A stretch of 64,000 nucleotides of DNA from Candidatus Multivoradales bacterium (GTDB taxonomy: Bacteria; Acidobacteriota; Thermoanaerobaculia; Multivoradales; JAHEKO01): the NCBI GenBank assembly GCA_965223155.1, contig CBDCVR010000014.1:736001-800000 (forward strand), given 5' to 3'. Positions within the stretch are counted from its first letter, which is position 1; each line of letters begins with the position of its first letter. A model generated the notes under the pieces. It was not told the origin of the DNA. It searched no databases and was given only the letters and a program-made list of their open reading frames with translations. The position numbers and the translations under genes are program-made. Positions 3,977 to 29,267 of the stretch are shown here, one piece after another.

Positions 3977-5671
3977 ATGCATCGAAGTCACCGCACCGTC
4001 TCGACGACTGGCCTGGCCCTGATGGCCCTGATGGCTCTGATGGCTCTGATGGCTCTGATCACCCCGCTCGCATGGTTCGCCCAGCCCGCGGCCGCCCAGC
4101 CGCTCGCCGAGCCGATGAGTGATGAGCGGGCGCGCAAGGTCGAGCGCGCCGTCGAGTTGGCGCAGCAGGGTCAGATCGACGCGGCCCGCGAGATCCTGAA
4201 CGGCATCGACACAAACTCCCTCGACGCGCCGGGGCAAGCCCTCATCGGCGCGATCTACGCCCAGATCGGTCCCCCGGCCCGAGCTCTCGAGCTCCTGGCG
4301 CCTCTCGCCGACGCCGCCGACGCCAACCCGGCGGTTCTCTACAACGCCGGGCGCGCGGCCTTCACCATGGGCCAGTTCGCCAGAGCGGAACGGTACTGGC
4401 AGCGGAGCGTAGACGTTCAACCCAACACTCCGGCTTCCCGGGAACTGGCCTTGCTCCGCGCACGGGACGGACGCTGCGATGCGGCCTATCCGGATCTGGT
4501 CTCCTGGCTGCGCGGCGGCGGCGACGAGCCGGAGGTCAAGCTAGTGTCCGCCCTGTGCGCCGTCCAGATGGAACGGCCTCCCGATGCCGAGGAGTTTCTA
4601 GCCGATCTTCCTCAGGAAGATCCTCGCGTCCAGTTGCTCCAGGGCAAGCTCCGCCTGCTGCGCTCCGATCCCGACGGCGCCATCGAGATCCTGGAAAAGG
4701 TCTTCCAGAACCATCCGCCGGCCATGGACTTGGACGTCCGACGCACCCTGGCCGACGTCTACTCGGCCACCGGCCGAGCCTCCCAGGCCGTCGACCTCCT
4801 GCTGGGCCAGGTCGAAGGGCGCCCGGACGCCGTCCTGCAGCTCGGGCTCGCTCAGTATCAGAGCGGCGACCTGGACGGGGCGCTGGCTACCCTCGAGCCC
4901 GCCGCGGCGGCGCTGCTGGCTCGCCTCCAGGCCGGTCAGCCCGCCGGCGAGTACCCCACGGCTCTCCTCATCGAATACGGCCGGTTCTTGGTGCTGGGCG
5001 GCCGCCATGCCGAAGCGCTTCCCTATCTCGAAACCGCTACCCAGGTGGTCCCGGACAGGAAGCAGGGCTGGCAGCAGCTAGGTCAAGCCCTGGCCGCGGT
5101 CGGTCGCCGGGACGAGGCGCGCGCCGCGCTCGACCAGTTCCAGAACATCGTCCAAAACGAGGTCCCTGGCTCGCTGCGCAACATCCGACTCAAGGGCGGC
5201 TTCGAGGATCCGGTCGATCGCGAGCTCCGCCGCGCGTACCTGCTGATGCTCCAGGATCAAGGCACCGAGGCACTCGAGATCGTGCAACGGGAAGCGCGGC
5301 TGGCCCCGAACGATCCCAGGCCCCGCTTGCTCGAGGCCCGCATCTACCTGGCGCTGGAGGACTTCGACGCCGCCGCGGCCACCGCCGACGCTCTCGTCTC
5401 CGGGCTTCCGGGCAACGCCGACGCCCTGTATATCCGCGGCACCACACGCATGGCGCGCCAAGACGTCGAGGGCGCCGAGAGCGACTTGCGTGGCGCTCTG
5501 GAGCTCCATCCGGAGCACACCGCCGCCCTCAATGATCTGGCCGTCCTGCTCATGGACACCGAGCGCGGCGAGGAAGCCCGCGGCCTCCTCGAACGAGCAC
5601 TCGAGATCCGTCCCGACGACGCTCTCGCGCGCGAAAACCTGGCCAAGCTCGACGCCGGCGGCTCGGGCTAG
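3977..5671 (+). CDS. secreted tetratricopeptide repeat (TPR) protein, full-length copy
   Basis: Signal peptide (…LMALITPLAWFAQPAAA) then many TPR-like helix pairs (ALELHPEHTAALNDLAVLL, ALEIRPDDALARENL). Confidence 0.85.
   Translation: MHRSHRTVSTTGLALMALMALMALMALITPLAWFAQPAAAQPLAEPMSDERARKVERAVELAQQGQIDAAREILNGIDTNSLDAPGQALIGAIYAQIGPPARALELLAPLADAADANPAVLYNAGRAAFTMGQFARAERYWQRSVDVQPNTPASRELALLRARDGRCDAAYPDLVSWLRGGGDEPEVKLVSALCAVQMERPPDAEEFLADLPQEDPRVQLLQGKLRLLRSDPDGAIEILEKVFQNHPPAMDLDVRRTLADVYSATGRASQAVDLLLGQVEGRPDAVLQLGLAQYQSGDLDGALATLEPAAAALLARLQAGQPAGEYPTALLIEYGRFLVLGGRHAEALPYLETATQVVPDRKQGWQQLGQALAAVGRRDEARAALDQFQNIVQNEVPGSLRNIRLKGGFEDPVDRELRRAYLLMLQDQGTEALEIVQREARLAPNDPRPRLLEARIYLALEDFDAAAATADALVSGLPGNADALYIRGTTRMARQDVEGAESDLRGALELHPEHTAALNDLAVLLMDTERGEEARGLLERALEIRPDDALARENLAKLDAGGSG
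4016..4060 (+). repeat. in-frame 9-bp tandem repeat (GCYCTGATG)x5 encoding ALM repeats in the signal peptide
   Basis: gccctgatg gccctgatg gctctgatg gctctgatg gctctgatc. Confidence 0.9.
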
Positions 5672-8600
5672 GGCAGCGGGGCTTCGAGTTCGATCCAGTT
5701 GATCTCGGCGCGCCGGTTGTTCTCGTTCCAGAGCTCATTGAACTTAACGATCCGAACGCGCACGTCCGAGTAGTCAGTCAAGCCCGAGGCCACCGAGGCC
5801 GGGATCGCAACCCGCATCGTCGATTCCTGGAAGTAGAGATCGCGGCCCCAGTACTTGAGGGTCGTGCCGCCCTGGAGCAGCACGATCCGAATCCGGACCG
5901 GCTCGTTATCGAGCGCCCGGCCGCGGACCCGAAGGACATGGCCTTCGTCGGTCCCGGGATCCGTCATCGAGGCCATCGCAAGGGTGAATGAGTCCGAGGT
6001 GCCGGCCGAGACCGAGGAGGTGACGACGTTCGTCAGATCATCGACCTGCTCGTGAACGGGTGTCGGCGAGAAGGAGTTGGTCGCGGTCGTACCGACAGCG
6101 GCCACCCGCTGGACGGGAGCGGAAACCTCGGGGACTCGAAACTCGACCTCAAACAGCTCGGCCCGACGATCCGAGTTGTTGCCCGTGATCTCATGGAACT
6201 TGACCACCTTAATCTGAACGTCGCCGTAGTCTTCGAGATTCGTGGCGGCTTCGGGAGGTATGGCGACTACCGCGACCGACTCCTCGAAGCCGAACTCGAG
6301 GTTTTGGTAGGTCAGCGAGGTGCTTCCCCGCATCAGGTGCACGCGCAAGGTCACCGGGGCGTTGTCGAGTGCCCGGGCCCGGACGTGGATCTCGTGCCCG
6401 AGATCGGTGTCAGGATCGCCCATCGGAGCCATCCGAACCGTCAGAGCATCGCTCATACTGGTACCAGCCGTCATGCGGGAGGTCACGAAGTTGGTGGGAT
6501 CGTCGAGCTGATCATGGACCGGCTCCGAAGAAGTCCAGTTCGAGCTCACCGTGGCGACCGGATAGGCGCGCCAGGCCTCGAACGTGAGGGCCGCCGGATC
6601 CGACAGGGCTTGTCCGTAGTCGCTCGAGGCCAGGCACCGGTAGGTGCCCGCGCTCGAGGCGTCGACGTTCCGAATCGTAAGCTGGGTAGTCGCGGCGCCT
6701 TCGATGCTGGCATCATCGGCCAGATCCGCGCCGTCTTTCTGCCAAAGATACGAGAGGGTGCCATCGCCCGTCGCCGCGCACGAGAAGCTCGCCTCTCCGC
6801 CGGCGATCGCCGTCGCCGGGGCCGGCTGGCTCGTCACCTGCGGCGGGTTTCCGATAACGAGACTCGCCGAGGCCGACACGGCCTCGCCAAAGCCGTTCGC
6901 CACCCGGCAGGCATACCCGCCGGCATCGGACGCGACCAGACTCGAAACCGTCACGCTTGGAGTCGCTGAGCCCGTCACTCGGGCTCCATCCACGAGCTCG
7001 ACACCGTTTCGGAGCCACTCGTAGCTGAGTGGCTCCGTGCCCGAGGCCGAGCAAGAAAAGGTGGCGCTCGTGCCGACAAGGGTCGAGACGCTTGCGGGAC
7101 TTGTGGTGACTATTGGCGCTGACCCGACCGAGACCAAGGCCTGAGCCGAGATCGCCTCGCCCCAGTCGTTGGCGACGCGGCAGCTGTACTGTCCGGAATC
7201 GCTCCCAACTGCGTTGGAGATCGTCAAGGCTTGAGTCGAAGCGCCCGTGACACGGCCGCCGTCCACAATCGCCTGCCCGTCTTTGTGCCAGGAGTAGGCC
7301 AAAGGCTTCGTCCCGGCTGCGAGGCAGGACAACGAAACGGAGGAACCTTCGGACACGGCCTGAGGTGCCGGCCCTTCGGTCAGATGCGGCCGAACGGCGA
7401 CGGTAAGCTCTGCGGGAGCCGAGATAGCTTCGCCAAACTCGTTCGAGACCTTGCACGAATACACCCCGGCGTCGCCGCTGGAAACCGAGTCGATTGTCAG
7501 CACAGGGGTCTCGGCTCCCGGAATGCCCTCGTCGCACAGCGACACGCTGTCCCGCCACCAGCAGACGTAGGCGGGATGGTCGCTGTAGTAGTCACAGGTC
7601 AGCGAAACCGATTGCCCGGCCAGAACCGTTTGATCCACCGGCTGGTAGGTCAGCACCGGGGCATGCTCGTTGTCCGCCGGAGGTGCCGCGCCGTTGCACA
7701 GGACGGTGCGCTCGGTGCCTTCCGTGCCCATATTGGAGTTGAAGCCGGCAGACGAGTCGGCGTTGACACGGACTCGCGTGGGCTCGGCGGGGATTGCATA
7801 GGGAATGTCGACCGTTACGGTGCCGCCAGGAGGAACGGGACCGACGGCGCCGAGATCCGCCTCCACGAAAATGGGATCGTGGGTCGCGTTCCACACGCTG
7901 GCCCGAAGCTTGTAGCCCTCCTCGAGCGTCCATATGGACGTACCGTCGTTGAGGAAGGAAACCGTGAACGTGTAGTCGGTGCCGCATTCGAGTACCGGCG
8001 GCACCGGCCCAATTGAAATCTGCGCGGAATCCCTGCTAGCGACCTCCTGCGATTCGAGGAGCAGCGCCTCCCCGGAGTGCAAACTCAGGATGGCATTCGT
8101 GGCCAAGACAACGGTCCCGTCGCCGGCCCAGAAGAGAAACGCCGGCACCATAACCGCCCGATCGGCCGCGAGATCGATGACGTAGGTTGTATCTCGGTAG
8201 GCTTTGACACTTCCCCGGACCGCTATCTTGGAGTCGTCAACCCACCACCAGCCCCCCTCGTCCCAGAGCGGATAGAGGCGGCCGTCCTCGAAAACGGCCA
8301 GCGTCTCGACTAGATTCTCCCCCGTGGCCGCAGAAAAGACCCCACCGAAGCCCTCGAAAAGACCTGTCTCGAGGTAGTAGGTACCGTCCGGCGAAAGCCC
8401 GTCGAGATGAGGAGACAGATCCGTGGACGGACTCCAGACGCCGCCGCTGTCTCGTTCGAGACGCACATCAGACTCATAGAGGGGCCGGACCACCAGCGTC
8501 CCCCCAGACTCCCAGAGCACCTCATCGCCGCCATCCAGCATTGCTTCGACCACCCACCCATCGATCGTCACCACAGCGGTCTGGCGGTTGATGAATCCCT

Positions 8601-9018
8601 CTTCGGTGTAATCCCCCAGGACGAGCGCAAGGTGTCTCGAATCGGGCGCCCAGCTGTACTTGTAGACGCCGGTCATCGCAAACTGCTGGGTGCCTGTCTC
8701 CGAATCGAGGACTCTAAGATGGTCCAGACCCTCGACAAACGAAACGAACTGGCCGTCCGGTGAAATACCAGGACGCTTGATGCCGTCCTCGGTGCACCGC
8801 CAGAACACTTCGGGCGGCTCCCCTGGTCGTTGCTGATAAAGCACACTGCGCTCGAAGGCCGCATCTTCGGGGACGAGCTGTTGGGATACCTCGGTCGGAA
8901 TTGCGACTCCGAAGCCAACCACTGGGCTCCATTCTGAGGGCCAGGCCGACGCGCAACTGCCCAGGGCAATGAGGAAATAGGCGGCGTAACCTTGCCTTTG
9001 TCGGGAATTCTGCATCAT
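5668..9018 (-). CDS. gene B1: secreted protein, TolB/WD40-like beta-propeller + NBR1-Ig-like + 4 Ig (I-set-like) + duplicated C-terminal domain; putative cognate immunity/partner
   Basis: Signal peptide; ISPDGQFVSFV, WAPDSRHLAL and LSPDGTYY propeller motifs; four C..W..DxGxYxC Ig repeats; ATGA overlap with A1 stop. Confidence 0.8.
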   Translation of the reverse strand: MMQNSRQRQGYAAYFLIALGSCASAWPSEWSPVVGFGVAIPTEVSQQLVPEDAAFERSVLYQQRPGEPPEVFWRCTEDGIKRPGISPDGQFVSFVEGLDHLRVLDSETGTQQFAMTGVYKYSWAPDSRHLALVLGDYTEEGFINRQTAVVTIDGWVVEAMLDGGDEVLWESGGTLVVRPLYESDVRLERDSGGVWSPSTDLSPHLDGLSPDGTYYLETGLFEGFGGVFSAATGENLVETLAVFEDGRLYPLWDEGGWWWVDDSKIAVRGSVKAYRDTTYVIDLAADRAVMVPAFLFWAGDGTVVLATNAILSLHSGEALLLESQEVASRDSAQISIGPVPPVLECGTDYTFTVSFLNDGTSIWTLEEGYKLRASVWNATHDPIFVEADLGAVGPVPPGGTVTVDIPYAIPAEPTRVRVNADSSAGFNSNMGTEGTERTVLCNGAAPPADNEHAPVLTYQPVDQTVLAGQSVSLTCDYYSDHPAYVCWWRDSVSLCDEGIPGAETPVLTIDSVSSGDAGVYSCKVSNEFGEAISAPAELTVAVRPHLTEGPAPQAVSEGSSVSLSCLAAGTKPLAYSWHKDGQAIVDGGRVTGASTQALTISNAVGSDSGQYSCRVANDWGEAISAQALVSVGSAPIVTTSPASVSTLVGTSATFSCSASGTEPLSYEWLRNGVELVDGARVTGSATPSVTVSSLVASDAGGYACRVANGFGEAVSASASLVIGNPPQVTSQPAPATAIAGGEASFSCAATGDGTLSYLWQKDGADLADDASIEGAATTQLTIRNVDASSAGTYRCLASSDYGQALSDPAALTFEAWRAYPVATVSSNWTSSEPVHDQLDDPTNFVTSRMTAGTSMSDALTVRMAPMGDPDTDLGHEIHVRARALDNAPVTLRVHLMRGSTSLTYQNLEFGFEESVAVVAIPPEAATNLEDYGDVQIKVVKFHEITGNNSDRRAELFEVEFRVPEVSAPVQRVAAVGTTATNSFSPTPVHEQVDDLTNVVTSSVSAGTSDSFTLAMASMTDPGTDEGHVLRVRGRALDNEPVRIRIVLLQGGTTLKYWGRDLYFQESTMRVAIPASVASGLTDYSDVRVRIVKFNELWNENNRRAEINWIELEAPLP

Positions 9019-12000
9019 GGGTCACATTTCAGCTCAAGAGCTGTCTGCGGTTGCCGGAAACCGATATGTAAGTGATGGTGGTGCTGGTCGTTCTCGTATT
9101 TGTAGACGCCGTCTGGAAAGATTGGACAGATGTCTTTGAGTCTGCTGCGGTCGTCGACGATGACCTTTCTTATCAAGCCGCCTGGTGAGTTCTTCTGGAG
9201 GAGGGTCAGGAATAGGCAGGTTGCCTCCGGGTCGAACACCTGATCAGCGTATCGCCAGTCGAACGAAAAACTCTTCTCGTTCGTGTTCTTGAAGTACCTC
9301 ATGTCAATGTCCAGTCCATTCTGGTGGTCGAAGTGGGGGGGGGCCGAACCTCCACGTATCTTGCTAAGGTCGTTGAACATCGGCCGAATCTCACCGACGA
9401 AGTCCGTATCAGTGGGGACCGTTGGGTTGTCGAAGCCCTCGGCGGTGGCCGTGATCCATTTGATAACTGACCACGCACAGCTGTAGTCCTCTTCTTCCCA
9501 GCCGCCGTAGCGACCCCAGTGCTCGCTGGTGCCGAGTGCTGAGGAATTCACCAGGCATCCATTGCTACGGGTGCCGATGTGGTGGCAGGCGGTGCAGGAG
9601 CCGCTGACATGGGGACCGAGGTCCACTCCCGTGTCGAAGGGCGAGAACCCCGTGCCGGAGGCGCTGGCGAAAAGCCGCGTTTCGGTACTTCCGCCGGCAC
9701 AGCCACATCTTTGGGGCAACTGCACCTGGACCGTGCGGCGTCCGGTACGCGGGGGCCACTCGGGATCGCCCTCGATGATGGTCACGTCGACGACTCGGAC
9801 GCATTCGTCTTCGGTCCCAACCGACAAGGCATTCAGCTCGCCACTGGGCTCGGTTTCGTTTTCAAACGTTGGCCCTTCGAAGCCATAGCACCAGAGACCC
9901 GAAATCGACCAGCCTCTTACTAGCGGTATCGTTCCCCGGGTTTCGTAGTTGGCGCAGATCTCGAGATCGATCGCAAACTCGAAGACATTGTCACTGTTGA
10001 ACGGATCGATTAGAACGCAGCCTACGAGAGACCCTTCGATCTCGAGTCGTGCAATGACGTGAAGTACATTGAGTTCGAGGAACTTCTCGGCCCCGGGTAG
10101 CAGACTGACGACTTCCGACGGCGCCATGTCCGCAAGCGACTCCAGGTCCTTCCATAGAGTCTGGGACTCGTCAAAGTCCAAGATGTTGTATCGGTAGTTC
10201 TTGGAGTAGCAGCCACTCAAGATACTTCCGGTAGGGAGCGTGACGTCCGGCTGGAGCAATGTCTCCGTAGGTCTTGGGGCCTGAAGCCGAACGCCTGTGC
10301 CGCCGATGAGCGTCTCGGCGACCGATGCCGTTGCCGTACTGCCACCTACCGTCAGCGGCAGCCGAACGCTGCCTTCGGAAGTGGTCACAACCAGTTCGGA
10401 GGCTCCCAAAGATGCTCCGTGGGTAACAGCAAGCGTTGCAAGGACCCCGTTCGGAGCGGTTCTGACGCTGTGAAACCGAAGGCCGCTCCCGCTCACCGAA
10501 AGCGTTGCACCCGAGAGATTCGCGCCGGCGATCTGAAGGAGGTACTGTCGGCCGCGCGCCACTTCACTGGGCGTGTACGAGTCAACCACAGGTCCCTTTG
10601 GAAGGATTCTCACGAGAGCGAAGTCGATACCTCCGTCGGTTGCGACAGCGAGGGCCTTGAAGCCGACGTCTGCGGACCGTGCGTCGATATCTAAGGTCAG
10701 CTGACTCGCAGAAGAAGAAACCGACGCCACCGAGGGCAGCCCTTTGTTGGCACCACCCGGGAGCCCGAACGAGACATCGGCACCTTGGAGATTTCCACCG
10801 GACAGGGTCGTCCGGGTAACCGCACCTTGGGGCACGACGATCAAAGCATCTGTCAGAGTTGGTGATCCGGCAGTCGGATTCGTGACTTGGATTGCGGAAG
10901 CGTCGAGCTCGCCAAAGCGGGTCCCGCTCGTAGTTTCCATTTGCCAACGGACAGAGTAGTAGCCAGGGACCGCTGAGCCGGGGATCGTGACCTCGAAGAC
11001 GAACGAGTGCGAGCCAGATTCGTCGATCTGTGCACCTGCCGGCAGCTCCACGCTCGCCGGAAAAAAGTCGAGGTCGGTGTCGACGGCCAGCCGATGGGTG
11101 CCGGCCTGCCAAGTCGAGGTACCGTTGTTGGCAACACTTACTGAGATCGTATGGGTCGAACCGAGTGCCATCGGAGACGGAACGTTGGCCGAGACGATGT
11201 CGGCGTCGTTGGCTCCCGTCTGGCAGGTCACCTCGATGGGATGAGAGACGACGCCGCCGAACCAGGCGACGCCCTCGTTGACCATCTGCCACTCCGTCCC
11301 ATAGCTTCCGGGCTGCGACGGCGCGGTCAAGGCGACCGAGAACGAATGCTGGGATTGCGGGGCGATCGAGGCGCTTGTGGGCAGCTGAACCCGAGTCGCA
11401 TCGGCCCGGAACGGGTCGCTTCCTCCCGTCGGGCCTAGTTTGTAGCCGTCCGCCCGTGTCCAGACCGTGTCGCCCGTGTTCTTCATCGTGACGGCATAGG
11501 TCCCCACTTCGCCACAGGCCATCTGCGACGGCAAGTTGTGACCAACAGCCTGGGCAGCGTCTTGACAGGTCACGGTGATGGTCTTCGAGACCTTCTCGCC
11601 GAACCACTGCCCGTTCTCGACCATCTGCCACTCAGTGGTGAGAGTCGTTGCCGTCTCGGGCGCTACCAGCGAGACGTCGAAGGTGTGGGAGTCGTTCTCT
11701 TCGATCGCGAGGCTCGCCGGCAGGTGGACCCGGGCGCCGCTCGGGTTGAAGGGATCGGTATCCCCGGGAACCCCCAGTTGATGACCGCCGGCAGCGGTCC
11801 AGGGCTTCGAGCCGCCGTTGCGAAGCGTTATCTCACGAACCAGGGTCGAGCCGCAGGTCATGGAATCGGGCAGGGTGTCCGAGACCCGGGTGGCAGCGTT
11901 GACGCAATCAACGTCGATCCTGGCAGTCACGAGCGGGCCAAAAGGCTCGCCGTTGTGCTCCATCTGCCAGAGGGTCATGACGTCGTTCTGGTGGGTGTCG

Positions 12001-12752
12001 CTCGGGGCCTGGAGGGGAACCTTGAAAGGGTACTGGCCTCCGCCGCGACCGACCGTGACATTGCTCGGCAAGCGCACCGGAGCGCCGGACGGGTTGAACG
12101 CGTCGCTCGTGCCCACGTTGGCGAGATAGAACCCAGCCGCGTCGGTCCAGTCGGTCGAGCCCATGTTCTGGAGCGTCACCGTGGCTTCGTCTTCCGAAGA
12201 GCAGTTCATCGCCGCCGGGAACACCTCGGCGGCGAGGACCGCGTGATCCCCACAGACGACGTTGATGTCCTTGAAGACGATCGAACCGAACCATTCGACC
12301 CCCTGCTCGGCCATCTGCCACTCCGTGCGCACGACGCCGTGGACGTCCGGGGCGGTCAACTCGACGGTGAACGTGTGCCGCTGTCCCGGAGCGATGGTCG
12401 TGCCTACGGGGAGCCGGACCTTGTTGCCGTTCGGCCGAAACGGATCGTCGTTGTCCGTGACCCCGAGCCGGTGCCCGTTCGTACCGTCCTCGGTCCAGTC
12501 GCCCGTACCGACGTTCTCGAGCCGAATCGTGAACGACTCGGTGTCGCCGCAGTACATCGCGTCCGGCAGGTTCTGCGAGACGACAAGAGCATCATTGACG
12601 TCGGCGCCGACCGGCGGATCCTCTGGCCCCGGGTCGGGCTCCTGGGCGGTGGCGACCGCGGCTGCCGCGAGCACGGCTGCGCAGGCTCGCCCGATTCTTC
12701 GGTATCGGCGGGAGGGGCTAGCCTTCTGTCGTCCCATCCCAACCCACTCCAT
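9015..12752 (-). CDS. gene A1: secreted protein, 5 NBR1-Ig-like repeats + 2 IPT/TIG-like + C-terminal MepA-like (M74/LAS) murein endopeptidase; putative polymorphic toxin
   Basis: Repeats NxGxxxWT...F...LxAP...WQM...FG; C-terminal IGTRSNGCL, NDLSKIRGG, HFDHQNGLDID, HHHHLHIGF. True start may be ATG 12737. Confidence 0.8.
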   Translation of the reverse strand: MEWVGMGRQKASPSRRYRRIGRACAAVLAAAAVATAQEPDPGPEDPPVGADVNDALVVSQNLPDAMYCGDTESFTIRLENVGTGDWTEDGTNGHRLGVTDNDDPFRPNGNKVRLPVGTTIAPGQRHTFTVELTAPDVHGVVRTEWQMAEQGVEWFGSIVFKDINVVCGDHAVLAAEVFPAAMNCSSEDEATVTLQNMGSTDWTDAAGFYLANVGTSDAFNPSGAPVRLPSNVTVGRGGGQYPFKVPLQAPSDTHQNDVMTLWQMEHNGEPFGPLVTARIDVDCVNAATRVSDTLPDSMTCGSTLVREITLRNGGSKPWTAAGGHQLGVPGDTDPFNPSGARVHLPASLAIEENDSHTFDVSLVAPETATTLTTEWQMVENGQWFGEKVSKTITVTCQDAAQAVGHNLPSQMACGEVGTYAVTMKNTGDTVWTRADGYKLGPTGGSDPFRADATRVQLPTSASIAPQSQHSFSVALTAPSQPGSYGTEWQMVNEGVAWFGGVVSHPIEVTCQTGANDADIVSANVPSPMALGSTHTISVSVANNGTSTWQAGTHRLAVDTDLDFFPASVELPAGAQIDESGSHSFVFEVTIPGSAVPGYYSVRWQMETTSGTRFGELDASAIQVTNPTAGSPTLTDALIVVPQGAVTRTTLSGGNLQGADVSFGLPGGANKGLPSVASVSSSASQLTLDIDARSADVGFKALAVATDGGIDFALVRILPKGPVVDSYTPSEVARGRQYLLQIAGANLSGATLSVSGSGLRFHSVRTAPNGVLATLAVTHGASLGASELVVTTSEGSVRLPLTVGGSTATASVAETLIGGTGVRLQAPRPTETLLQPDVTLPTGSILSGCYSKNYRYNILDFDESQTLWKDLESLADMAPSEVVSLLPGAEKFLELNVLHVIARLEIEGSLVGCVLIDPFNSDNVFEFAIDLEICANYETRGTIPLVRGWSISGLWCYGFEGPTFENETEPSGELNALSVGTEDECVRVVDVTIIEGDPEWPPRTGRRTVQVQLPQRCGCAGGSTETRLFASASGTGFSPFDTGVDLGPHVSGSCTACHHIGTRSNGCLVNSSALGTSEHWGRYGGWEEEDYSCAWSVIKWITATAEGFDNPTVPTDTDFVGEIRPMFNDLSKIRGGSAPPHFDHQNGLDIDMRYFKNTNEKSFSFDWRYADQVFDPEATCLFLTLLQKNSPGGLIRKVIVDDRSRLKDICPIFPDGVYKYENDQHHHHLHIGFRQPQTALELKCDP

Positions 12753-21054: not shown

Positions 21055-21936
21055 GTGGACCTCTTGCTGGGCCGCGTCGAAAGCCGACCGGACGCCGTTT
21101 TGCAGCTCGGGCTCGCCCAGTATCAGAGCGGCGACCTGGACGGGGCGCTGGCTACCCTCGAGCCGGCCGCGGCGGCGCTGCTGGCTCGCCTCCAAGCCGG
21201 TCAGCCCGCCGGCGAATACCCCACGGCTCTCCTCATCGAGTACGGCCGCTTCCTGGTTCTGGGCGGCCGCCATGCCGAAGCGCTCCCCTATCTCGAGACC
21301 GCTACCAAGGTGGTCCCGGACAGGAAGCAGGGCTGGCAGCAGCTAGGTCAAGCCCTGGCCGCGGTCGGCCGCCGGGACGAGGCGCGAGCCGCCCTCGACC
21401 AGTTCCAGAGCATCGTCCAGAACGAGGTTCCCGGATCGCTACGCAACATCCGGCTCAAGGGCGGCTTTGAAGATCCCGTCGATCGCGAGCTCCGCCGCGC
21501 GTACCTGCTCATGCTCCAGGATCAAGGCGCCGAAGCGCTCGAGATCGTGCAACGGGAGGCTCGCCTGGCGCCCGAGGATCCCCGACCCCGCTTGCTCGAA
21601 GCCCGCATCTATCTCGCCCAAGAGGACTTCGACGCCGCGGCGGCCGCCGCCGAGGCTCTCGTCGCTGGACTTCCGGGTAACGCAGACGCCCTCTACATCC
21701 GCGGCACCACGCGCATGGCGCGGCAGGACATGGAGGGCGCCGAGAGCGACCTGCGCAACGCCCTCGAGCTCCATCCCGAGCACACCGCCGCCCTCAACGA
21801 CCTGGCCGTCCTGCTCATGGACACCGACCGGGGCCAGGAAGCTCGCGGCCTCCTGGAACGAGCGCTCGAGATCCGTCCCGACGACACCCTCGCGCGCGAG
21901 AACCTGAACAAGCTCGACGCCGGCGGCTCGGGCTAG
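21055..21936 (+). pseudogene. second 5'-truncated TPR duplicate, same protein sequence as 13041..13922
   Basis: Same 293-aa translation, offset 8014. Confidence 0.7.
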
Positions 21937-24900
21937 GGCAGCGGGGCTTCGAGTTCGATCCAGTTGATCTCGGCGCGCCGGTTGCTCTCGTTCCAGAGCT
22001 CATTGAACTTGACGATCCGAACGCGCACGTCCGAGTAGTCAGTCAAGCCCGAGGCCACCGAGGCCGGGATCGCAACCCGCACCGTCGACTCCTCGAAGTC
22101 GAGATCGCGGCCCCAGTACTTGAGGGTCGTACCGCCCTGGAGCAGCATGATCCGAATCCGGACCGGCTCGTTATCGAGCGCCCGGCCGCGGACCCGAAGG
22201 ACATGGCCTTCGTCGGTCCCGGGATCCGTCATCGAGGCCATCGCAAGGGTGAATGAGTCCGAGGTGCCGGCCGAGACCGAGGAGGTGACGACGTTCGTCA
22301 GATCATCGACCTGCTCGTGAACGGGTGTCGGCGAGAAGGAGTTGGTCGCGGTCGTACCGACAGCGGCCACCCGCTGGACCGGAGCGGAAACCTCGGGAAC
22401 CCGAAACTCGACCTCTACGAGCTCGGCCCGGCGGTCCGAGTTGTTGCCCGAGATCTCATGGAACTTGACCACCTTGATCTGGACGTCGCCGTAGTCTTCG
22501 AGATTCGTGGCGGCTTCGGGAGGTATGGCGACTACCGCGACCGACTCCTCGAAGCCGAACTCGAGGTTCTGGTAGGTCAGCGAGGTGCTTCCCCGCATCA
22601 GGTGCACGCGCAAGGTCACCGGGGCGTTGTCGAGCGCCCGGGCCCGGACGTGGATCTCGTGCCCGAGATCGGTATCCGGGTCGCTCATCGGGGCCATGCG
22701 GACCGTCAGAGCGTCGCTCAGGCTGGTGCCGGCGGTCATGCGGGAGGTCACCACGGTGGTGGGATCGTCGAGCTGGTCATGGACCGGCTCCGAGGAGATC
22801 CAGTTCGAGCTCAGGGTCTCGACCGGATAAGCGCGCCAAGACTCGAAGTCGAGGGCCGCCGGATCCGACAGGGCTTGTCCGTAGTCGCTCGAAGCCAGGC
22901 ACCGGTAGGTGCCCGCGCTCGAGGCGTCGACGTTCCGAATCGTAACCTGGGCAGTCGCGGCGCCTTCGATGCTGGCATCATCGGCCAGATCCGCGCCGTC
23001 TTTCTGCCACTGATACGAGAGGGTGCCATCGCCCGTTGCCGCGCACGAGAAGCTCGCCTCTCCGCCGGCGATCGCCGTCGCCGGGGCCGGCTGGCTCGTC
23101 ACCTGCGGCGGGTTTCCAATGACGAGACTCGCGGAAACGGACGTCACCTCGCCAAAGCCGTTCGCCACCCGGCAGGAATACCCGCCCGCATCGGACGCGA
23201 CCAGACTCGACACCGTCACGCTCGGAGTCGCTGAGCCCGTCACTCGGGCGCCATCCACGAGCTCGACGCCATTCCGCAACCATTGGTAGGCGAGCGGCTC
23301 CGAGCCCGAGGCCGAGCAGGAAAACGTGGCGCTCGTGCCGACAAGGGTCGAGACGCTTGCGGGACTTGTGGTGACAATTGGCGCTGACCCGACCGAGACC
23401 AAGGCCTGGGCCGAGATCGCCTCGCCCCAGTCGTTGGCGACGCGGCAGCTGTACTGTCCGGAATCGCTCCCAACTGCGTTGGAGATCGTCAAGGCTTGAG
23501 TCGAAGCGCCCGTGACACGGCCGCCGTCCACAATCGCCTGCCCGTCTTTGTGCCAGGAGTAGGCCAAAGGCTCCGTCCCGGCTGCGAGGCAGGACAACGA
23601 AACGGAGGAACCTTCGGACACAGCCTGAGGTGCCGGCCCTTCGGTCAGATGCGGCCGAACGGCGACGGTAAGCTCTGCGGGAGCCGAGATAGCTTCGCCA
23701 AACTCGTTCGAGACCTTGCACGAATACGCCCCGGCATCGCCGCTGGAAACCGAGTCGATTGTCAGCACAGGGGTCTCGGCTCCCGGAATGCCCTCGTCGC
23801 ACAGCGACACGCTGTCCCGCCACCAGCAGACGTAGGCGGGATGGTCGCTGTAGTAGTCACAGGTCAGCGAAACCGATTGCCCGGCCAGAACCGTCTGATC
23901 CACCGGCTGGTAGGTCAGCACCGGGGCATGCTCGTTGTCCGCCGGAGGCGCGGCGCCATTGCACAGGACGGTGCGCTCAATTCCCTCCAACTCGGCAAAA
24001 AGGTTCTGGCCGAACACGGCATCAGCTCGTATTGCGACTTTGGCTGGGGCGGCCGGAGTGGTATAGGAGACACTTAAGTTCAAAGTCTCGCCCGGGGAAA
24101 CTGGCCCGAGGGTCGAAAGATCGGCTTCGAGCAAGATAGGGTCGTGCATCGCGCCGTGCACAACCGCGCGAAGCTCATACCCGTCCTCGACTGTCCAAGT
24201 TGACGTGCCGTCGTTCAGGAAAGAAGCAACAAAGTCGTACGTCGTACTGCACTCGAGAACAGCGGGGATCGGCCCGGCTGAAAGTCGCGCGGAATCTCTA
24301 TCCCCGGTTTCCTGGGACGCCGAGAGCAGTGCTTCTGCCGAGTGCGAGTTCAGGATGGCGTTCGTTGCGAGGATGACGTCACCTTCGCCGGCCCAAAACA
24401 GAAAGGCCCGTTCCAGGACGGCGCGGTCAGCCGCGAGATCGATGATGTAGGTCACGTCTCGGTAGGCACTGAGGCTTCCCCGAACCGCGATCTTGGAGTC
24501 GTCAATCCACCACCAGGACTCGTCGCTCCATTCCGGGTAGAGTCGTCCTTCATCGAAGACGGACAGCGTCTCGACGAGATTTTCCCCTGTGGCCCTTTCG
24601 AAGATCCCGTAGAGGCCCGAAGCCCCGCCTTGAACATAGTGAGTCCCTCCTGGTGAGAGTCGGTCAAGGTAAGGGGATTGGTCGGCAGACGGGCTCCAGA
24701 CTGCGTTCGCCTCCCGCTCTAGCCGCATCTCGTCCTCGAACTGGGGATCGTCATAGCGCACAACCAAGGATCCCTCGGGTTCCCAGTGGACTTCAATTCC
24801 GCCCTCGAGAACCGATTCGACGACCCAGCCGTCCGTGGCGACGACTGCCGTTTGGCGGTTCATGAAGCGGTCGCTCTCAGCGTCTTCCCCCAATAAGATC

Positions 24901-25301
24901 GCCAGATACTTCGAGTCCGGAGACCATTGGAATCTGTAGCCTCCAGGCATTTCAAACAGCTGCATCCCGGAATCAGAATCCAGCACGCGGAGAAAAACGT
25001 AGCCCTCGACAAATGCGATGAACCGACCGTTAGGAGAGATTGAGGAATCTGCGATCCAGTTCCCTGCACCTTGCCAAAAGACCTCTGGCGGTTGCCCGAG
25101 CTGTTGGATGTAGAGGACATTCTCGCCGAAGGTCGTACCTTCAACAACGAGTTGGTGAAGTAGCTCAGCCGAGGTAACAACCCCGAAGCCGGCCAGCGAA
25201 CTCCAGTCCGAAGGCCTGGCGGCCATCGGAGTTCCGAAAACAAGGATAAGAACTGCTACAACCCGGATGCCCTGATCACGCAGTGACTTCACTGGTCGCA
25301 T
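21933..25301 (-). CDS. gene B3: secreted beta-propeller + NBR1-Ig-like + 4 Ig + duplicated C-terminal domain; putative cognate immunity/partner
   Basis: ATG 25301 with GGAG upstream (or GTG 25292, GTGA overlap); signal peptide; ISPNGRFIAFV, WSPDSKYLAIL; N-terminal part homologous to but clearly diverged from B1. Confidence 0.8.
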   Translation of the reverse strand: MRPVKSLRDQGIRVVAVLILVFGTPMAARPSDWSSLAGFGVVTSAELLHQLVVEGTTFGENVLYIQQLGQPPEVFWQGAGNWIADSSISPNGRFIAFVEGYVFLRVLDSDSGMQLFEMPGGYRFQWSPDSKYLAILLGEDAESDRFMNRQTAVVATDGWVVESVLEGGIEVHWEPEGSLVVRYDDPQFEDEMRLEREANAVWSPSADQSPYLDRLSPGGTHYVQGGASGLYGIFERATGENLVETLSVFDEGRLYPEWSDESWWWIDDSKIAVRGSLSAYRDVTYIIDLAADRAVLERAFLFWAGEGDVILATNAILNSHSAEALLSASQETGDRDSARLSAGPIPAVLECSTTYDFVASFLNDGTSTWTVEDGYELRAVVHGAMHDPILLEADLSTLGPVSPGETLNLSVSYTTPAAPAKVAIRADAVFGQNLFAELEGIERTVLCNGAAPPADNEHAPVLTYQPVDQTVLAGQSVSLTCDYYSDHPAYVCWWRDSVSLCDEGIPGAETPVLTIDSVSSGDAGAYSCKVSNEFGEAISAPAELTVAVRPHLTEGPAPQAVSEGSSVSLSCLAAGTEPLAYSWHKDGQAIVDGGRVTGASTQALTISNAVGSDSGQYSCRVANDWGEAISAQALVSVGSAPIVTTSPASVSTLVGTSATFSCSASGSEPLAYQWLRNGVELVDGARVTGSATPSVTVSSLVASDAGGYSCRVANGFGEVTSVSASLVIGNPPQVTSQPAPATAIAGGEASFSCAATGDGTLSYQWQKDGADLADDASIEGAATAQVTIRNVDASSAGTYRCLASSDYGQALSDPAALDFESWRAYPVETLSSNWISSEPVHDQLDDPTTVVTSRMTAGTSLSDALTVRMAPMSDPDTDLGHEIHVRARALDNAPVTLRVHLMRGSTSLTYQNLEFGFEESVAVVAIPPEAATNLEDYGDVQIKVVKFHEISGNNSDRRAELVEVEFRVPEVSAPVQRVAAVGTTATNSFSPTPVHEQVDDLTNVVTSSVSAGTSDSFTLAMASMTDPGTDEGHVLRVRGRALDNEPVRIRIMLLQGGTTLKYWGRDLDFEESTVRVAIPASVASGLTDYSDVRVRIVKFNELWNESNRRAEINWIELEAPLP

Positions 25302-28300
25302 CTCAGCTCCAGTGCGGTTTGAGGTTGTTTGAAACGGATGTGCAGATGGTTGTGGTGGTCGCCGACGTAGCTGAACTTGCTTGCCAGGTCCTTGCATCTC
25401 TTTTTGAGCTTGCTTCGCTCGTCACTGAGTATCGTCAAGATGCGGTCGCCGGTTCCGCTCGAACTGCCGTTCAGCAGCTTCAAGAAGTTGCAGGTCACTG
25501 CAGGTTCAAAAGTCGCATCGTCGTTACTGGTGCCTCGGAACTCAAACGGGCCATCATCCCAGTTGTGAAAGTAGCGCATATCTAGATCAAGTCCGTTTTC
25601 GTGGGTGGCGTGGTCCGGGGTATCTCCGCCCCGTTGCAAACTGAGGTCGTTGAACATGGGTTGGATCTCCTCGCCTTGCCAATTGGGGTTTCTTCCAACC
25701 GTGGGATTGTGGAATTGCTGCGCCGCAGCCCTGAGCCACGAGATGACGGACCAGTCGCAGCTGTAGTCGTGTGCTTGCCATCCGCCATAGCGACCAAAGT
25801 GCTCACTGGTGCCTAGTGCCGAAGAATTCACAAGGCATCCTGGCTCGCGTTTGCCGCCGATCGTGCCGTAGCCTCCAATGTGATGGCATGCCGTGCACGA
25901 GCCGCTCACGTGGGGGCCGGGGTCCACTCCTGTATCGAAGGGTGAGAATCCGGTGCCGGAGGCGCTGGCGAAAAGCCGCGTTTCGGTACTTCCGCCGGCA
26001 CAGCCACATCTTTGGGGCAACTGCACCTGGACCGTGCGGCGTCCGGTACGCGGGGGCCACTCGGGATCGCCCTCGATGACGGTTACGTCGACAACCCGGA
26101 CGCATTCGTCCTCGGTCCCAACCGACAAGGCATTCAGCTCGCCACTGGGCTCGGTTTCGTTTTCAAACGTTGGCCCTTCGAAGCCATAGCACCAGAGACC
26201 CGAAATCGACCAGCCTCTTACTAGCGGTATCGTTCCCCGGGTTTCGTAGTTGGCGCAGATCTCGAGATCGATCGCAAACTCGAAGACATTGTCACTGTTG
26301 AACGGATCGATTAGAACGCAGCCTACGAGAGACCCTTCGATCTCGAGTCGTGCAATGACGTGAAGTACATTGAGTTCGAGGAACTTCTCGGCCCCGGGTA
26401 GCAGACTGACGACTTCCGACGGCGCCATGTCCGCAAGCGACTCCAGGTCCTTCCATAGAGTCTGGGACTCGTCAAAGTCCAAGATGTTGTATCGGTAGTT
26501 CTTGGAGTAGCAGCCACTCAAGATACTTCCGGTAGGGAGCGTGACGTCCGGCTGGAGCAATGTCTCCGTAGGTCTTGGGGCCTGAAGCCGAACGCCTGTG
26601 CCGCCGATGAGCGTCTCGGCGACCGATGCCGTTGCCGTACTGCCACCTACCGTCAGCGGCAGCCGAACGCTGCCTTCGGAAGTGGTCACAACCAGTTCGG
26701 AGGCTCCCAAAGATGCTCCGTGGGTAACAGCAAGCGTTGCAAGGACCCCGTTCGGAGCGGTTCTGACGCTGTGAAACCGAAGGCCGCTCCCGCTCACCGA
26801 AAGCGTTGCACCCGAGAGATTCGCGCCGGCGATCTGAAGGAGGTACTGTCGGCCGCGCGCCACTTCACTGGGCGTGTACGAGTCAACCACAGGTCCCTTT
26901 GGAAGGATTCTCACGAGAGCGAAGTCGATACCTCCGTCGGTTGCGATAGCGAGGGCCTTGAAGCCGACGTCTGCGGACCGTGCGTCGATATCTAAGGTCA
27001 GCTGACTCGCAGAAGAAGAAACCGACGCCACCGAGGGCAGCCCTTTGTTGGCACCACCCGGGAGCCCGAACGAGACATCGGCACCTTGGAGATTTCCACC
27101 GGACAGGGTCGTCCGGGTAACCGCACCTTGGGGCACGACGATCAAAGCATCTGTCAGAGTTGGTGATCCGGCAGTCGGATTCGTGACTTGGATTGCGGAA
27201 GCGTCGAGCTCGCCAAAGCGGGTCCCGCTCGTAGTTTCCATTTGCCAACGGACAGAGTAGTAGCCAGGGACCGCTGAGCCGGGGATCGTGACCTCGAAGA
27301 CGAACGAGTGCGAGCCAGATTCGTCGATCTGTGCACCTGCCGGCAGCTCCACGCTCGCCGGAAAAAAGTCGAGGTCGGTGTCGACGGCCAGCCGATGGGT
27401 GCCGGCCTGCCAAGTCGAGGTACCGTTGTTGGCAACACTTACCGAGATCGTGTGGGTCGAACCGAGTGCCATCGGAGACGGAACGTTGGCCGAGACGATG
27501 TCGGCGTCGTTGGCCCCCGTCTGGCAGGCCACCTCGATGGGATGAGAGACGACGCCACCAAACCAGCCAACCCCCTCGTTGACCATCTGCCATTCCGTTA
27601 CATAGCTGCCAGGCTGCGCCGGTGCGGTCAGGGACACCGAGAACGAATGCTGGGATTGCGGGGCGATCGAGGCGCTTGTGGGCAGCTGAACCCGAGTCGC
27701 ATCGGCCCGGAACGGGTCGCTTCCTCCCGTCGGGCCTAGTTTGTAGCCGTCCGCCCGTGTCCAGACCGTGTCGCCCGTGTTCTTCATCGTGACGGCATAG
27801 GTCCCCACTTCGCCACAGGCCATCTGCGACGGCAAGTTGTGACCAACAGCCTGGGCAGCGTCTTGACAGGTCACGGTGATGGTCTTCGAGACCTTCTCGC
27901 CGAACCACTGCCCGTTCTCGACCATCTGCCACTCAGTGGTGAGAGTCGTTGCCGTCTCGGGCGCTACCAGCGAGACGTCGAAGGTGTGGGAGTCGTTCTC
28001 TTCGATCGCGAGGCTCGCCGGCAGGTGGACCCGGGCGCCGCTCGGGTTGAAGGGATCGGTATCCCCGGGAACCCCCAGTTGATGACCGCCGGCAGCGGTC
28101 CAGGGCTTCGAGCCGCCGTTGCGAAGCGTTATCTCACGAACCAGGGTCGAGCCGCAGGTCATGGAATCGGGCAGGGTGTCCGAGACCCGGGTGGCAGCGT
28201 TGACGCAATCAACGTCGATCCTGGCAGTCACGAGCGGGCCAAAAGGCTCGCCGTTGTGCTCCATCTGCCAGAGGGTCATGACGTCGTTCTGGTGGGTGTC

Positions 28301-29053
28301 GCTCGGGGCCTGGAGGGGAACCTTGAAAGGGTACTGGCCTCCGCCGCGACCGACCGTGACATTGCTCGGCAAGCGCACCGGAGCGCCGGACGGGTTGAAC
28401 GCGTCGCTCGTGCCCACGTTGGCGAGATAGAACCCAGCCGCGTCGGTCCAGTCGGTCGAGCCCATGTTCTGGAGCGTCACCGTGGCTTCGTCTTCCGAAG
28501 AGCAGTTCATCGCCGCCGGGAACACCTCGGCGGCGAGGACCGCGTGATCCCCACAGACGACGTTGATGTCCTTGAAGACGATCGAACCGAACCATTCGAC
28601 CCCCTGCTCGGCCATCTGCCACTCCGTGCGCACGACGCCGTGGACGTCCGGGGCGGTCAACTCGACGGTGAACGTGTGCCGCTGTCCCGGAGCGATGGTC
28701 GTGCCTACGGGGAGCCGGACCTTGTTGCCGTTCGGCCGAAACGGATCGTCGTTGTCCGTGACCCCGAGCCGGTGCCCGTTCGTACCGTCCTCGGTCCAGT
28801 CGCCCGTACCGACGTTCTCGAGCCGAATCGTGAACGACTCGGTGTCGCCGCAGTACATCGCGTCCGGCAGGTTCTGCGAGACGACAAGAGCATCATTGAC
28901 GTCGGCGCCGACCGGCGGATCCTCTGGCCCCGGGTCGGGCTCCTGGGCGGTGGCGACCGCGGCTGCCGCGAGCACGGCTGCGCAGGCTCGCCCGATTCTT
29001 CGGTATCGGCGGGAGGGGCTAGCCTTCTGTCGTCCCATCCCAACCCACTCCAT
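25289..29053 (-). CDS. gene A3: NBR1-Ig/IPT scaffold + diverged MepA-like murein endopeptidase tip; putative polymorphic toxin
   Basis: PGCLVNS, NDLSLQRGG, HATHENGLDLD, HHNHLHIRF motifs. Confidence 0.8.
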   Translation of the reverse strand: MEWVGMGRQKASPSRRYRRIGRACAAVLAAAAVATAQEPDPGPEDPPVGADVNDALVVSQNLPDAMYCGDTESFTIRLENVGTGDWTEDGTNGHRLGVTDNDDPFRPNGNKVRLPVGTTIAPGQRHTFTVELTAPDVHGVVRTEWQMAEQGVEWFGSIVFKDINVVCGDHAVLAAEVFPAAMNCSSEDEATVTLQNMGSTDWTDAAGFYLANVGTSDAFNPSGAPVRLPSNVTVGRGGGQYPFKVPLQAPSDTHQNDVMTLWQMEHNGEPFGPLVTARIDVDCVNAATRVSDTLPDSMTCGSTLVREITLRNGGSKPWTAAGGHQLGVPGDTDPFNPSGARVHLPASLAIEENDSHTFDVSLVAPETATTLTTEWQMVENGQWFGEKVSKTITVTCQDAAQAVGHNLPSQMACGEVGTYAVTMKNTGDTVWTRADGYKLGPTGGSDPFRADATRVQLPTSASIAPQSQHSFSVSLTAPAQPGSYVTEWQMVNEGVGWFGGVVSHPIEVACQTGANDADIVSANVPSPMALGSTHTISVSVANNGTSTWQAGTHRLAVDTDLDFFPASVELPAGAQIDESGSHSFVFEVTIPGSAVPGYYSVRWQMETTSGTRFGELDASAIQVTNPTAGSPTLTDALIVVPQGAVTRTTLSGGNLQGADVSFGLPGGANKGLPSVASVSSSASQLTLDIDARSADVGFKALAIATDGGIDFALVRILPKGPVVDSYTPSEVARGRQYLLQIAGANLSGATLSVSGSGLRFHSVRTAPNGVLATLAVTHGASLGASELVVTTSEGSVRLPLTVGGSTATASVAETLIGGTGVRLQAPRPTETLLQPDVTLPTGSILSGCYSKNYRYNILDFDESQTLWKDLESLADMAPSEVVSLLPGAEKFLELNVLHVIARLEIEGSLVGCVLIDPFNSDNVFEFAIDLEICANYETRGTIPLVRGWSISGLWCYGFEGPTFENETEPSGELNALSVGTEDECVRVVDVTVIEGDPEWPPRTGRRTVQVQLPQRCGCAGGSTETRLFASASGTGFSPFDTGVDPGPHVSGSCTACHHIGGYGTIGGKREPGCLVNSSALGTSEHFGRYGGWQAHDYSCDWSVISWLRAAAQQFHNPTVGRNPNWQGEEIQPMFNDLSLQRGGDTPDHATHENGLDLDMRYFHNWDDGPFEFRGTSNDDATFEPAVTCNFLKLLNGSSSGTGDRILTILSDERSKLKKRCKDLASKFSYVGDHHNHLHIRFKQPQTALELRCDQ

Positions 29054-29168
29054 CGTTGGTCACGGGCTGGAATGCGTTGGCGGACGACGACTCGCGGCTC
29101 AGAAAGCCCTGAGAGCGACGGGCTCGCGCCGCCGGAGAACCGACACAACCATTACCAACCACGCGGTC

Positions 29169-29197
29169 AGGGTAGTGGAAAACGTTGCGACTTGCAA
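29169..29197 (-). promoter_or_regulatory. putative promoter of A3-B3 operon (TTGCAA-N17-TACCCT); -35 lies inside palindrome GACTTGCAAGTC (29189-29200)
   Basis: Minus strand TTGCAA gtcgcaacgttttccac TACCCT. Confidence 0.55.
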
Positions 29198-29267
29198 GTC
29201 AATCGATAATCTGGGTCTAGACTCGAGCCTCGTCTTCCTGGCGATCCGTGCCTGCTCTTCTCACCGG

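Follow-up and report, generated by a model that had tools for sequence, protein, structure and literature searches.

Paired secreted proteins on Ig scaffolds in a Candidatus Multivoradales bacterium: a candidate polymorphic toxin/immunity-like system

Colicin and pyocin bacteriocins unite a body for receptor binding or translocation with a killing domain at the C-terminus and are encoded next to an immunity gene, and among the effectors of type VI secretion (T6SS) that degrade the cell wall, the immunity protein is exported to match a wall-targeting toxin. The survey of polymorphic toxins by Zhang et al. (2012; Biol Direct 7:18; PMC3482391), in the part of the article drawn on here, names export by signal peptide and type II secretion system (T2SS) as the most prevalent route and includes HEAT repeats among the immunity proteins. 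In Bdellovibrio bacteriovorus, according to an excerpt of the published account (PMC4686830), the secreted DD-endopeptidase Bd3459 is accompanied by the ankyrin-repeat self-protection protein Bd3460. Here we describe two adjacent genes, A and B, that form three tandem pairs in a 64,000-nucleotide stretch (the window) of a Candidatus Multivoradales bacterium of the Acidobacteriota (GCA_965223155.1, contig CBDCVR010000014.1, positions 736,001 to 800,000 of the forward strand). Each A protein ends in a variable C-terminal domain (the tip) carried on a stalk of immunoglobulin-like (Ig) repeats, and each B protein begins with a variable domain (the head) followed by a constant Ig tail. We put the probability that A-B is a Sec-exported polymorphic toxin/immunity-like system, with a new scaffold and with a long Ig tail joined to its immunity module, at about 0.6.

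Polymorphic toxins of the Sec/T2SS type, as portrayed in that part of the survey, share with A-B a signal peptide, a repeat stalk, a variable C-terminal toxin domain common to other carriers, a co-varying partner gene immediately downstream, and an immunity type made of HEAT repeats. The A stalk, consisting of NBR1/FW-type Ig domains and a pre-tip module of two IPT domains and a Cys-rich region, is not among the repeats given there for the T2SS-type route. B differs from Sec/T2SS-type immunity proteins in that the putative immunity module forms the N-terminal head of a secreted protein of about 1000 aa with a constant Ig tail, and in that orphan cassettes were not found. Rhs/YD proteins with their RhsI partners resemble A-B in that a conserved body changes abruptly into a lower-GC variable tip and is followed by a coupled downstream gene, and Rhs/YD proteins elsewhere bear the two A tip families; A, in contrast, lacks RHS/YD repeats, the DPxGL core end and PAAR/VgrG domains (Pfam), and constant coding sequence adjoins its variable region at either end. 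Bd3459/Bd3460, as far as the excerpt goes, is similar in that a secreted peptidoglycan endopeptidase is paired with an adjacently encoded repeat-protein inhibitor, but Bd3459 is of the PBP4 type whereas the A peptidase tips are of the LAS/M74 type, and the Bdellovibrio system is presented there with no Ig scaffold, polymorphic cassettes or inhibitor tail. Colicins, pyocins and T6SS effectors have a very different domain make-up from A-B, and no lysis or T6SS genes were found at the A-B loci.

Architecture of the A and B proteins

The three tandem pairs lie on the minus strand in the order A to B, as a sequence-only reading of this DNA had reported; their coordinates, their lengths and a self-blastn comparison agree with that account. 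All six A and B open reading frames (ORFs) in the window are intact, and the start and stop codons of A and B overlap in all three pairs. According to the same reading, B begins at the stop codon of A, which is the case for B1 and B2, where the two codons overlap as ATGA, but not for B3, whose ATG is 13 nt inside A3. The main features, in window positions, are as follows.

9015-12752, minus strand: A1, 1245 aa; signal-peptide-like N-terminus, five NBR1-type Ig domains, IPT-IPT-Cys-rich pre-tip, M74-like tip
10893-12605, minus strand: A1 constant NBR1/FW-type Ig array, about residues 50-620 (N_BRCA1_IG, 129.6 bits; identity windows)
9588-10865, minus strand: A1 IPT-IPT-Cys-rich pre-tip, residues 630-1055
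9018-9599, minus strand: A1 tip, residues 1052-1245; MepA/Peptidase_M74-like LAS metallopeptidase with intact H..D and HxH motifs
5668-9018, minus strand: B1, 1116 aa; signal peptide, propeller head, Ig-like domain, and a tail of four I-set Ig domains and two unassigned domains of about 150 aa
8014-8937, minus strand: B1 variable head, about residues 28-335, predicted beta-propeller (AlphaFold2, Foldseek; hhalign to P0031)
5671-7689, minus strand: B1 constant tail, residues 444-1116
16828-20766, minus strand: A2, 1312 aa; N-terminal array of the A1 type, diverged pre-tip, DUF3238-like tip
16831-17586, minus strand: A2 tip, about residues 1061-1312; DUF3238-like all-beta domain (Pfam 21.5 bits; PDB 3c5p, E = 3.3e-4; Foldseek)
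13919-16831, minus strand: B2, 970 aa counted from the ATG that overlaps the A2 stop as ATGA; signal peptide, head of HEAT repeats, constant Ig tail
15947-16831, minus strand: B2 variable HEAT-repeat head, residues 1-295 (HEAT_2, 64 bits)
25289-29053, minus strand: A3, 1254 aa; about 100% identical to A1 up to about residue 1050
25292-25900, minus strand: A3 M74-like tip, 40-56% identical to that of A1
21933-25301, minus strand: B3; propeller head 40-72% identical to that of B1, tail about 98% identical

The N-termini of A1 to A3 resemble signal peptides by eye, with one basic and one hydrophobic stretch as well as an ATA-QE site. Pfam searches detected N_BRCA1_IG in four or five stretches of each A protein (124 to 130 bits), together with a CARDB-like Ig domain, and the NBR1/FW-type array is near-identical in all five A genes of the genome. 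Two IPT-like domains and the Cys-rich region stand between array and tip in each A protein; the Cys-rich part matched no Pfam family, and the pre-tip gave no usable match in the ESM Atlas. The sequence-only reading had recognised no Rhs/YD, FHA, PAAR/VgrG or LXG signature, and Pfam searches of A1 to A3 at E <= 0.01 likewise returned no carrier domain of the Rhs, contact-dependent inhibition (TpsA-FHA), T6SS (PAAR-VgrG) or LXG kind. NCBIfam gave nothing above its cut-offs, and no secretion-system genes were found at the three A-B loci.

LAS metallopeptidases are defined by H-x(n)-D and H-x-H zinc/catalytic motifs. The MepA-like nature that had been ascribed to the A1 and A3 tips is supported by these motifs, whose residues H92, D97, D99, H176 and H178 (A1-tip numbering) do not vary among the aligned tip relatives (13 of 13), but the Pfam matches to Peptidase_M74, which span roughly the first 90 profile positions, stay below the gathering cut-off of 25 bits (22.6 for the A1 tip and 18.1 for the A3 tip). 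MepA itself (PF03411; PDB 1tzp), the best PDB sequence match of the M74-like tip (E = 0.28), has the same H-x-D and HxH zinc motifs; unlike MepA, the A1 domain forms a tip of about 190 aa on a 1245-aa protein. An FDTG sequence at the scaffold/tip junction was considered as an aspartyl-protease-like site and rejected, as two relatives (P0009 and P0012) carry other residues there.

The assignment of the A2 tip as DUF3238-like proved borderline, with 21.5 bits for the tip alone and 18.0 bits for the whole of A2 against a cut-off of 21.1 bits (PF11579). PDB 3c5p, matched by sequence at E = 3.3e-4, was also the only Foldseek match (E = 1.9e-3; TM 0.39-0.49) of the tip model, which is all-beta and of low confidence (predicted local distance difference test [pLDDT] of 56.7), its quality perhaps lowered by folding without the first beta-strand (EVEIEIRTFIPTN...). 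DUF3238 has a solved structure, and we know of no function or enzymatic role for it.

Each B protein starts with a signal peptide and has Ig_3/I-set matches in four stretches (Pfam). For the AlphaFold2 model of the B1 head (pLDDT 72.4; predicted TM score 0.72), Foldseek returned at least 500 structures with E <= 1e-3, of which those listed were largely propellers of the WD40, YVTN and S9-peptidase kinds (best match, E = 4.3e-9 and TM of about 0.5), while Pfam PD40 reached only 14.9 bits. The structural predictions support a beta-propeller in the heads of B1, B3 and B5, in agreement with what had been proposed from the sequence, and the HEAT-repeat assignment of the B2 head, with HEAT_2 at 64 bits, holds as well. 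An Ig-like domain between the propeller head and the constant tail of B1 (7690-8013; B5 equivalent, G000:C14:1330176-1330613) weakly resembles the NBR1-type repeats of A (30% identity, E = 4e-7 for B5) and counts as a variable part in B1/B3.

The two tandem domains of about 150 aa at the C-terminus of B had no database match; the last 310 aa drew no meaningful match from PDB sequences, and the best ESM Atlas score of 0.88, to phage hypothetical proteins, was below the 0.9 mark. No protein with these domains was found outside the genome, the matches being its own four B proteins, in a search that did not extend to relatives of the I-set Ig domains. A complex prediction that combined the head of B1 (residues 28-335; an alignment of 4 rows) with the tip of A1 (13 rows) scored 0.00, which gives no answer and is no evidence either way.

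Five gene pairs with constant flanks and variable centres

The 4.0-Mb genome (G000; 15 contigs) contains five A-B operons in total by tblastn, two of them outside the window. A4/B4 on contig C15 is of the DUF3238/HEAT type, and A5/B5 at the end of contig C14 (locus L034, C14:1325377-1331880) is of the M74/propeller type. B5 changes frame about 760 nt before the contig end, inside the first constant Ig domain, a change that reflects either a genuine frameshift or a fault of assembly in the repeat. All five pairs keep the pairing of M74 tips with propeller heads (n = 3) and of DUF3238 tips with HEAT heads (n = 2). The neighbours of A4/B4 and A5/B5 encode MobA, XdhC, a CAT-like acetyltransferase and PPTase, and a pyridoxal phosphate enzyme and a TonB receptor; since these two loci lie among unrelated housekeeping genes, the two genes are taken to be the (mobile) unit.

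Identity between copies was computed in 50-residue windows, and nonsynonymous (dN) and synonymous (dS) divergence in Nei-Gojobori windows. The constant and variable parts of the pairs compared are as follows.

A1/A3: constant part about 100% identical to residue ~1050; variable part 80, 56, 40 and 53% (50-aa windows)
A2/A4: constant part about 100% identical to residue ~1000; variable part 64, 36, 52, 42, 46 and 58%
B1/B3: constant part 86-100% identical (mostly 92-100%) beyond the first ~450 residues; variable part 40-72%
B2/B4: constant part 84-100% identical (mostly 90-100%) beyond the first ~300 residues; variable part 24-66%

These windows agree with the earlier description of B as variable at its N-terminus and conserved in its Ig and C-terminal domains. 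The companion description of A as constant except for its C-terminus is accurate for A1/A3 but not for A2, which diverges from about residue 590 onward, its middle part still being homologous. The breakpoints differ between pairs, falling near residue 500 in A1/A5, near 590 in A1/A2 and near 1050 in A1/A3, and thus indicate repeated recombination or conversion events. Over much of the scaffold dS is about 0, and it is mostly below 0.5, with zero differences in codons 1-450 of A1/A3. In tips and heads dS is mostly above 1 or incalculable (saturated) and dN is 0.2-1.0. The GC content at third codon positions (GC3) is 0.66-0.77 in tips and heads versus 0.79-0.84 in the constant N-terminal array and tails. 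The tip and head together form a cassette of about 2-3 kb, and the pattern of divergence and composition fits an ancient, lower-GC3 cassette set in freshly homogenised scaffolds. Two of the cassettes are delimited by short-read contigs:

7654-9681, unstranded: unit-1 unique tip+head cassette (short-read contigs ending at the repeated scaffolds; dS windows)
15922-19024, unstranded: unit-2 unique cassette (short-read contig)

The short-read contigs, which come from four runs of two samples in one study that is possibly the source of the assembly, match both intervals with 0 differences and end at the repeat borders. At position 9335, a contig from one run (X2), at a depth of 2.7, lacks one base in the A1 tip, which may be an error of sequencing or may come from a strain whose tip is broken.

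A 2765-aa protein on contig C13 (C13:34187-42484; locus L032, 1188-9482) joins NBR1-Ig domains of the A type (34% identity) to an Ig tail and C-terminal domains of the B type (45%), and no pre-tip module was found in it. By its domain content, it looks like an undivided, effector-less counterpart of A plus B. Its further domains are PKD and six or more of the I-set Ig type, and Laminin_G_3 matches weakly.

Relatives in other genomes and the surroundings of the array

Judged by a full HMMER scan of the A1 pre-tip and tip against 1.84 billion representatives, which returned 23 matches at E <= 1e-3, this family is very rare in public data. No orthologous A was found in 40 relatives of the genome, which gave Ig-repeat matches only, and a profile search found the full pre-tip module in 2 of 401 genomes of a phylum sample, G000 and G147. 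A homologue search with the A2 pre-tip and tip recovered A4 alone (one match among 7999 scored candidates), and the pre-tip profile search set to longer proteins recovered four proteins.

The M74 branch includes a 1683-aa protein (P0009; locus L029) from an Acidobacteriota metagenome-assembled genome with at least nine NBR1-Ig repeats, an IPT/pre-tip module and an M74 tip. Directly downstream is P0031, a protein of about 360 aa that has a signal peptide but no Ig tail; hhalign shows its homology to the heads of B1, B3 and B5 (probability 97.2%, E = 2.9e-11, 210 columns). Another protein, P0016, combines RHS_repeat (64 bits) and DUF6531 with a C-terminal M74-like domain (30.8 bits). Tip relatives above the M74 cut-off include P0009 (32.6 bits), P0010 (45.7 bits) and P0014 (42.0 bits). 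M74-tip relatives were found in 17 of the 401 phylum-sample genomes, mostly as proteins of 215-480 aa with no partner. The closest stand-alone relative in that sample (locus L045, G391:C1:159368-162892; 256-310 aa, E = 3e-46) lies between two transposase-like ORFs, which suggests that the M74 peptidase module moves alone.

DUF3238 (PF11579) was found in 5 of the 401 genomes. In G040, a DUF3238-like tip follows directly after NPLLRVDPTGL in a 1711-aa RHS-repeat protein; in G054, the domain is the tip of an 825-aa protein, and the next gene encodes a HEAT_2 protein of 214 aa (32.4 bits); in G417, DUF3238 makes up a protein of 360 aa, with a multi-pass membrane protein encoded after it; and in G147, the domain is inside a 2107-aa protein, between the IPT/pre-tip and Big_9/Laminin_G repeats.

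Tip diversity in homologous loci, which the sequence-only reading had named beforehand as a test, was found in the form of further tips on the IPT/pre-tip module. P0012 has an A-like scaffold and a third tip type with no assigned family, P0035 combines other N-terminal repeats with the IPT/pre-tip module and a C-terminal region containing an HExxH motif, and the metagenome loci L030 and L031 encode the IPT/pre-tip with DUF6973 as an internal domain in a fused design. At L031, a caspase-family gene (16625-17794, minus strand; Peptidase_C14, 79 bits) is convergent to the 2707-aa fused giant that bears the pre-tip and DUF6973.

The tandem array itself occupies window positions 4770-29203 and is made of a repeated segment of about 8.1-8.3 kb, the flanks of which are 93-98% identical among the three units while the centres have diverged (self-blastn). 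Each unit contains a plus-strand tetratricopeptide repeat (TPR) ORF convergent with B.

4770-12903, unstranded: tandem unit 1; 3' part of TPR gene C1, B1, A1 and the A promoter region (self-blastn)
13021-20917, unstranded: tandem unit 2; truncated C2, B2 and A2 (self-blastn)
21035-29203, unstranded: tandem unit 3; truncated C3, B3 and A3 (self-blastn)
3' end at 5671, plus strand: C1, with further TPR-like sequence upstream
13041-13922, plus strand: C2, a 5'-truncated copy of C1 that marks the duplication boundary
21055-21936, plus strand: C3, a 5'-truncated TPR copy

C2 and C3 begin at the duplication boundary and C1 is a longer gene. Because C2 and C3 are 5'-cut copies of C1, the array arose by segmental tandem duplication; the operon triplication reported earlier is correct as to the three copies, but the duplicated unit includes the TPR ORF, and the genome holds five operons. 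The TPR gene was considered as a third component and rejected, as copies 2 and 3 are truncated and no TPR neighbour was found at the other two A-B loci; it is a bystander cut by the segmental tandem duplication. Six FG-GAP/ASPIC-UnbV (CRTAC1-like) genes, some with TPR, surround the array (9-2009, 2006-4420, 29268-30968, 30965-32671, 32713-35403 and 35319-39170). Two of these genes, on opposite strands, share 68% DNA identity (414-1691 and 29589-30869), and the array thus lies between inverted paralogues.

A proposed toxin/immunity-like module weighed against its alternatives

If A-B is an effector/immunity-like module, the constant part of A (signal peptide, five NBR1/FW Ig domains, two IPT domains and Cys-rich pre-tip) would present an exchangeable C-terminal effector, either a LAS zinc peptidase of the MepA-like kind, for which cleavage of peptidoglycan cross-links is expected, or, alternatively, a DUF3238 domain of unassigned activity. 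B would be translated in step with A and exported likewise by a signal peptide, and its head would bind and neutralise the cognate tip in the producer envelope, with a propeller for peptidase tips and HEAT repeats for DUF3238 tips. The constant tail, which is common to the giant surface protein of G000, may serve as a stalk or anchoring part. A wall peptidase crossing the periplasm of its producer needs an exported inhibitor, which would make mechanistic sense of the B signal peptide, and the scaffold-only giant together with the fused giants suggests that the B tail was once the C-terminal stalk of such a protein and has become detached from it. Beside the anatomy and the coupled frames, the polymorphic toxin interpretation proposed from the sequence draws on the presence of both tips on Rhs proteins, the small stand-alone head-like partners elsewhere and the sharp boundary of the constant/variable mosaic, although Sec/T2SS toxins and HEAT immunity had already been described. 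Toxicity, tip-head binding, other bacteria as the target, export beyond Sec and the role of the tail are inferred.

Several points weigh against this interpretation. The tip/head pairing that had been called strict extends to five of five pairs in the genome and to P0009/P0031, but it rests on two classes, and co-inheritance of ancient operons could give the same pattern. Positive selection is not demonstrable by dN/dS because dS is saturated in tips and heads. Searches of the genome found no orphan tip/immunity cassettes, tblastn with A1 and B1 giving the five full operons and the 2765-aa protein. The genes downstream of three DUF3238-tipped proteins are heterogeneous (a HEAT protein, a 222-aa protein with hydrophobic ends and a multi-pass membrane protein) and showed no specific similarity to the B2/B4 heads (hhalign <1%), so that the HEAT link in other genomes holds at the family level only, in one of three downstream genes. 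For the M74 branch, none of 17 other M74-like loci had a match to the head profile nearby (16 phylum-sample genomes, flanks of 1.5 kb only), and most M74 relatives therefore have no such partner. In the fused giants (locus L041 of G147; L030 and L031) the effector domain is internal and followed by Ig/LamG repeats in one polypeptide, an arrangement that differs from a classical C-terminal toxin with immunity; no obvious partner gene accompanies these giants, and no co-directional downstream gene was found at L031. The interpretation also gives no route for the ~130-kDa Sec-exported A protein out of the producer or into the target periplasm, and we know of no precedent for a tail of about 650 residues on an immunity protein.

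The alternative that survives best, although we consider it unlikely, makes the A proteins secreted lytic or scavenging exoenzymes on Ig spacers, which break down wall material of other or dead bacteria as food or in predation, with the B head only shielding the producer wall during export and the cassettes being enzymes for different substrates. Bd3459/Bd3460, so far as the excerpt (PMC4686830) describes it, would be a precedent. The M74 tip belongs to a housekeeping-type family of wall endopeptidases whose relatives in the phylum sample mostly lack a partner, the fused giants with internal effectors resemble multidomain exoenzymes or adhesins, and other secreted proteins, of the FG-GAP/ASPIC kind, are encoded beside the array; yet both tip families also cap RHS-repeat proteins, which are classical toxin carriers, the sharp mosaic and lower GC3 of the cassettes are as in toxin/immunity polymorphism, and DUF3238 brings no enzymatic role known to us. 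This alternative keeps the inhibition of tip by head and differs from the toxin/immunity-like module mainly in ecological purpose.

We regard as distinctly improbable that A and B are halves of a BIG-like giant surface protein with no inhibition between tip and head, which would be functional or docking domains unrelated to each other, the mosaic being a by-product of gene conversion that homogenises the Ig flanks but not the diverged middle. The 2765-aa protein, in which A-type and B-type parts form one chain, and the differing breakpoints, which are expected from repeated conversion tracts, are in its favour, but it leaves unexplained the tail-less propeller homologue that follows an M74-tipped protein elsewhere, the overlapping frames, and the tip enzymes that are catalytically intact by motif and common to Rhs toxins. 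That the triplication or the mosaic is an assembly artefact of mis-joined repeats is scarcely credible, for although the fifth copy at a contig end and its frameshifted B5 show that repeats did disturb the assembly, the three units differ by long unique cassettes, two of which are covered with no differences by short-read contigs (possibly the source of the assembly), and the six ORFs are intact on a contig of 1.33 Mb.

The toxin/immunity-like module may take a more specific form, which we offer tentatively and do not expect to hold in full. A and B would together be a split giant surface fibre in which the B tail anchors, the B head docks and silences the A tip, and the A Ig array reaches outward, so that a tethered, pre-inhibited toxin leaves its antidote behind on engaging a target; a simple double crossover would swap the 2-3 kb of tip and head together. 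Constant coding sequence on both sides of the cassette, the A body and the B tail, would make tip and head exchangeable among the five loci or with incoming DNA.

Our literature searches found no description of an M74-type peptidase or DUF3238 as toxins, though the supplementary tables of Zhang et al. (2012) might hold them under other names, and nothing on DUF3238, on DUF6973 or on polymorphic toxins with NBR1 and immunity. If the toxin/immunity-like interpretation is true, the FW/NBR1-type Ig array with its IPT-IPT-Cys-rich pre-tip would be a new carrier scaffold and would provide the first functional handle on bacterial FW/NBR1-type domains. The M74-type wall peptidase and DUF3238 would be added to the effector families, and the immunity side would gain a beta-propeller module and a protein fused to a long constant tail. 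To our knowledge, interbacterial weaponry in the Acidobacteriota has been little studied. The two-armed cassette-exchange design would be one not described for polymorphic toxins, and the double-flanked cassette would offer a simple, testable model of how a toxin and its antidote stay together during recombination.

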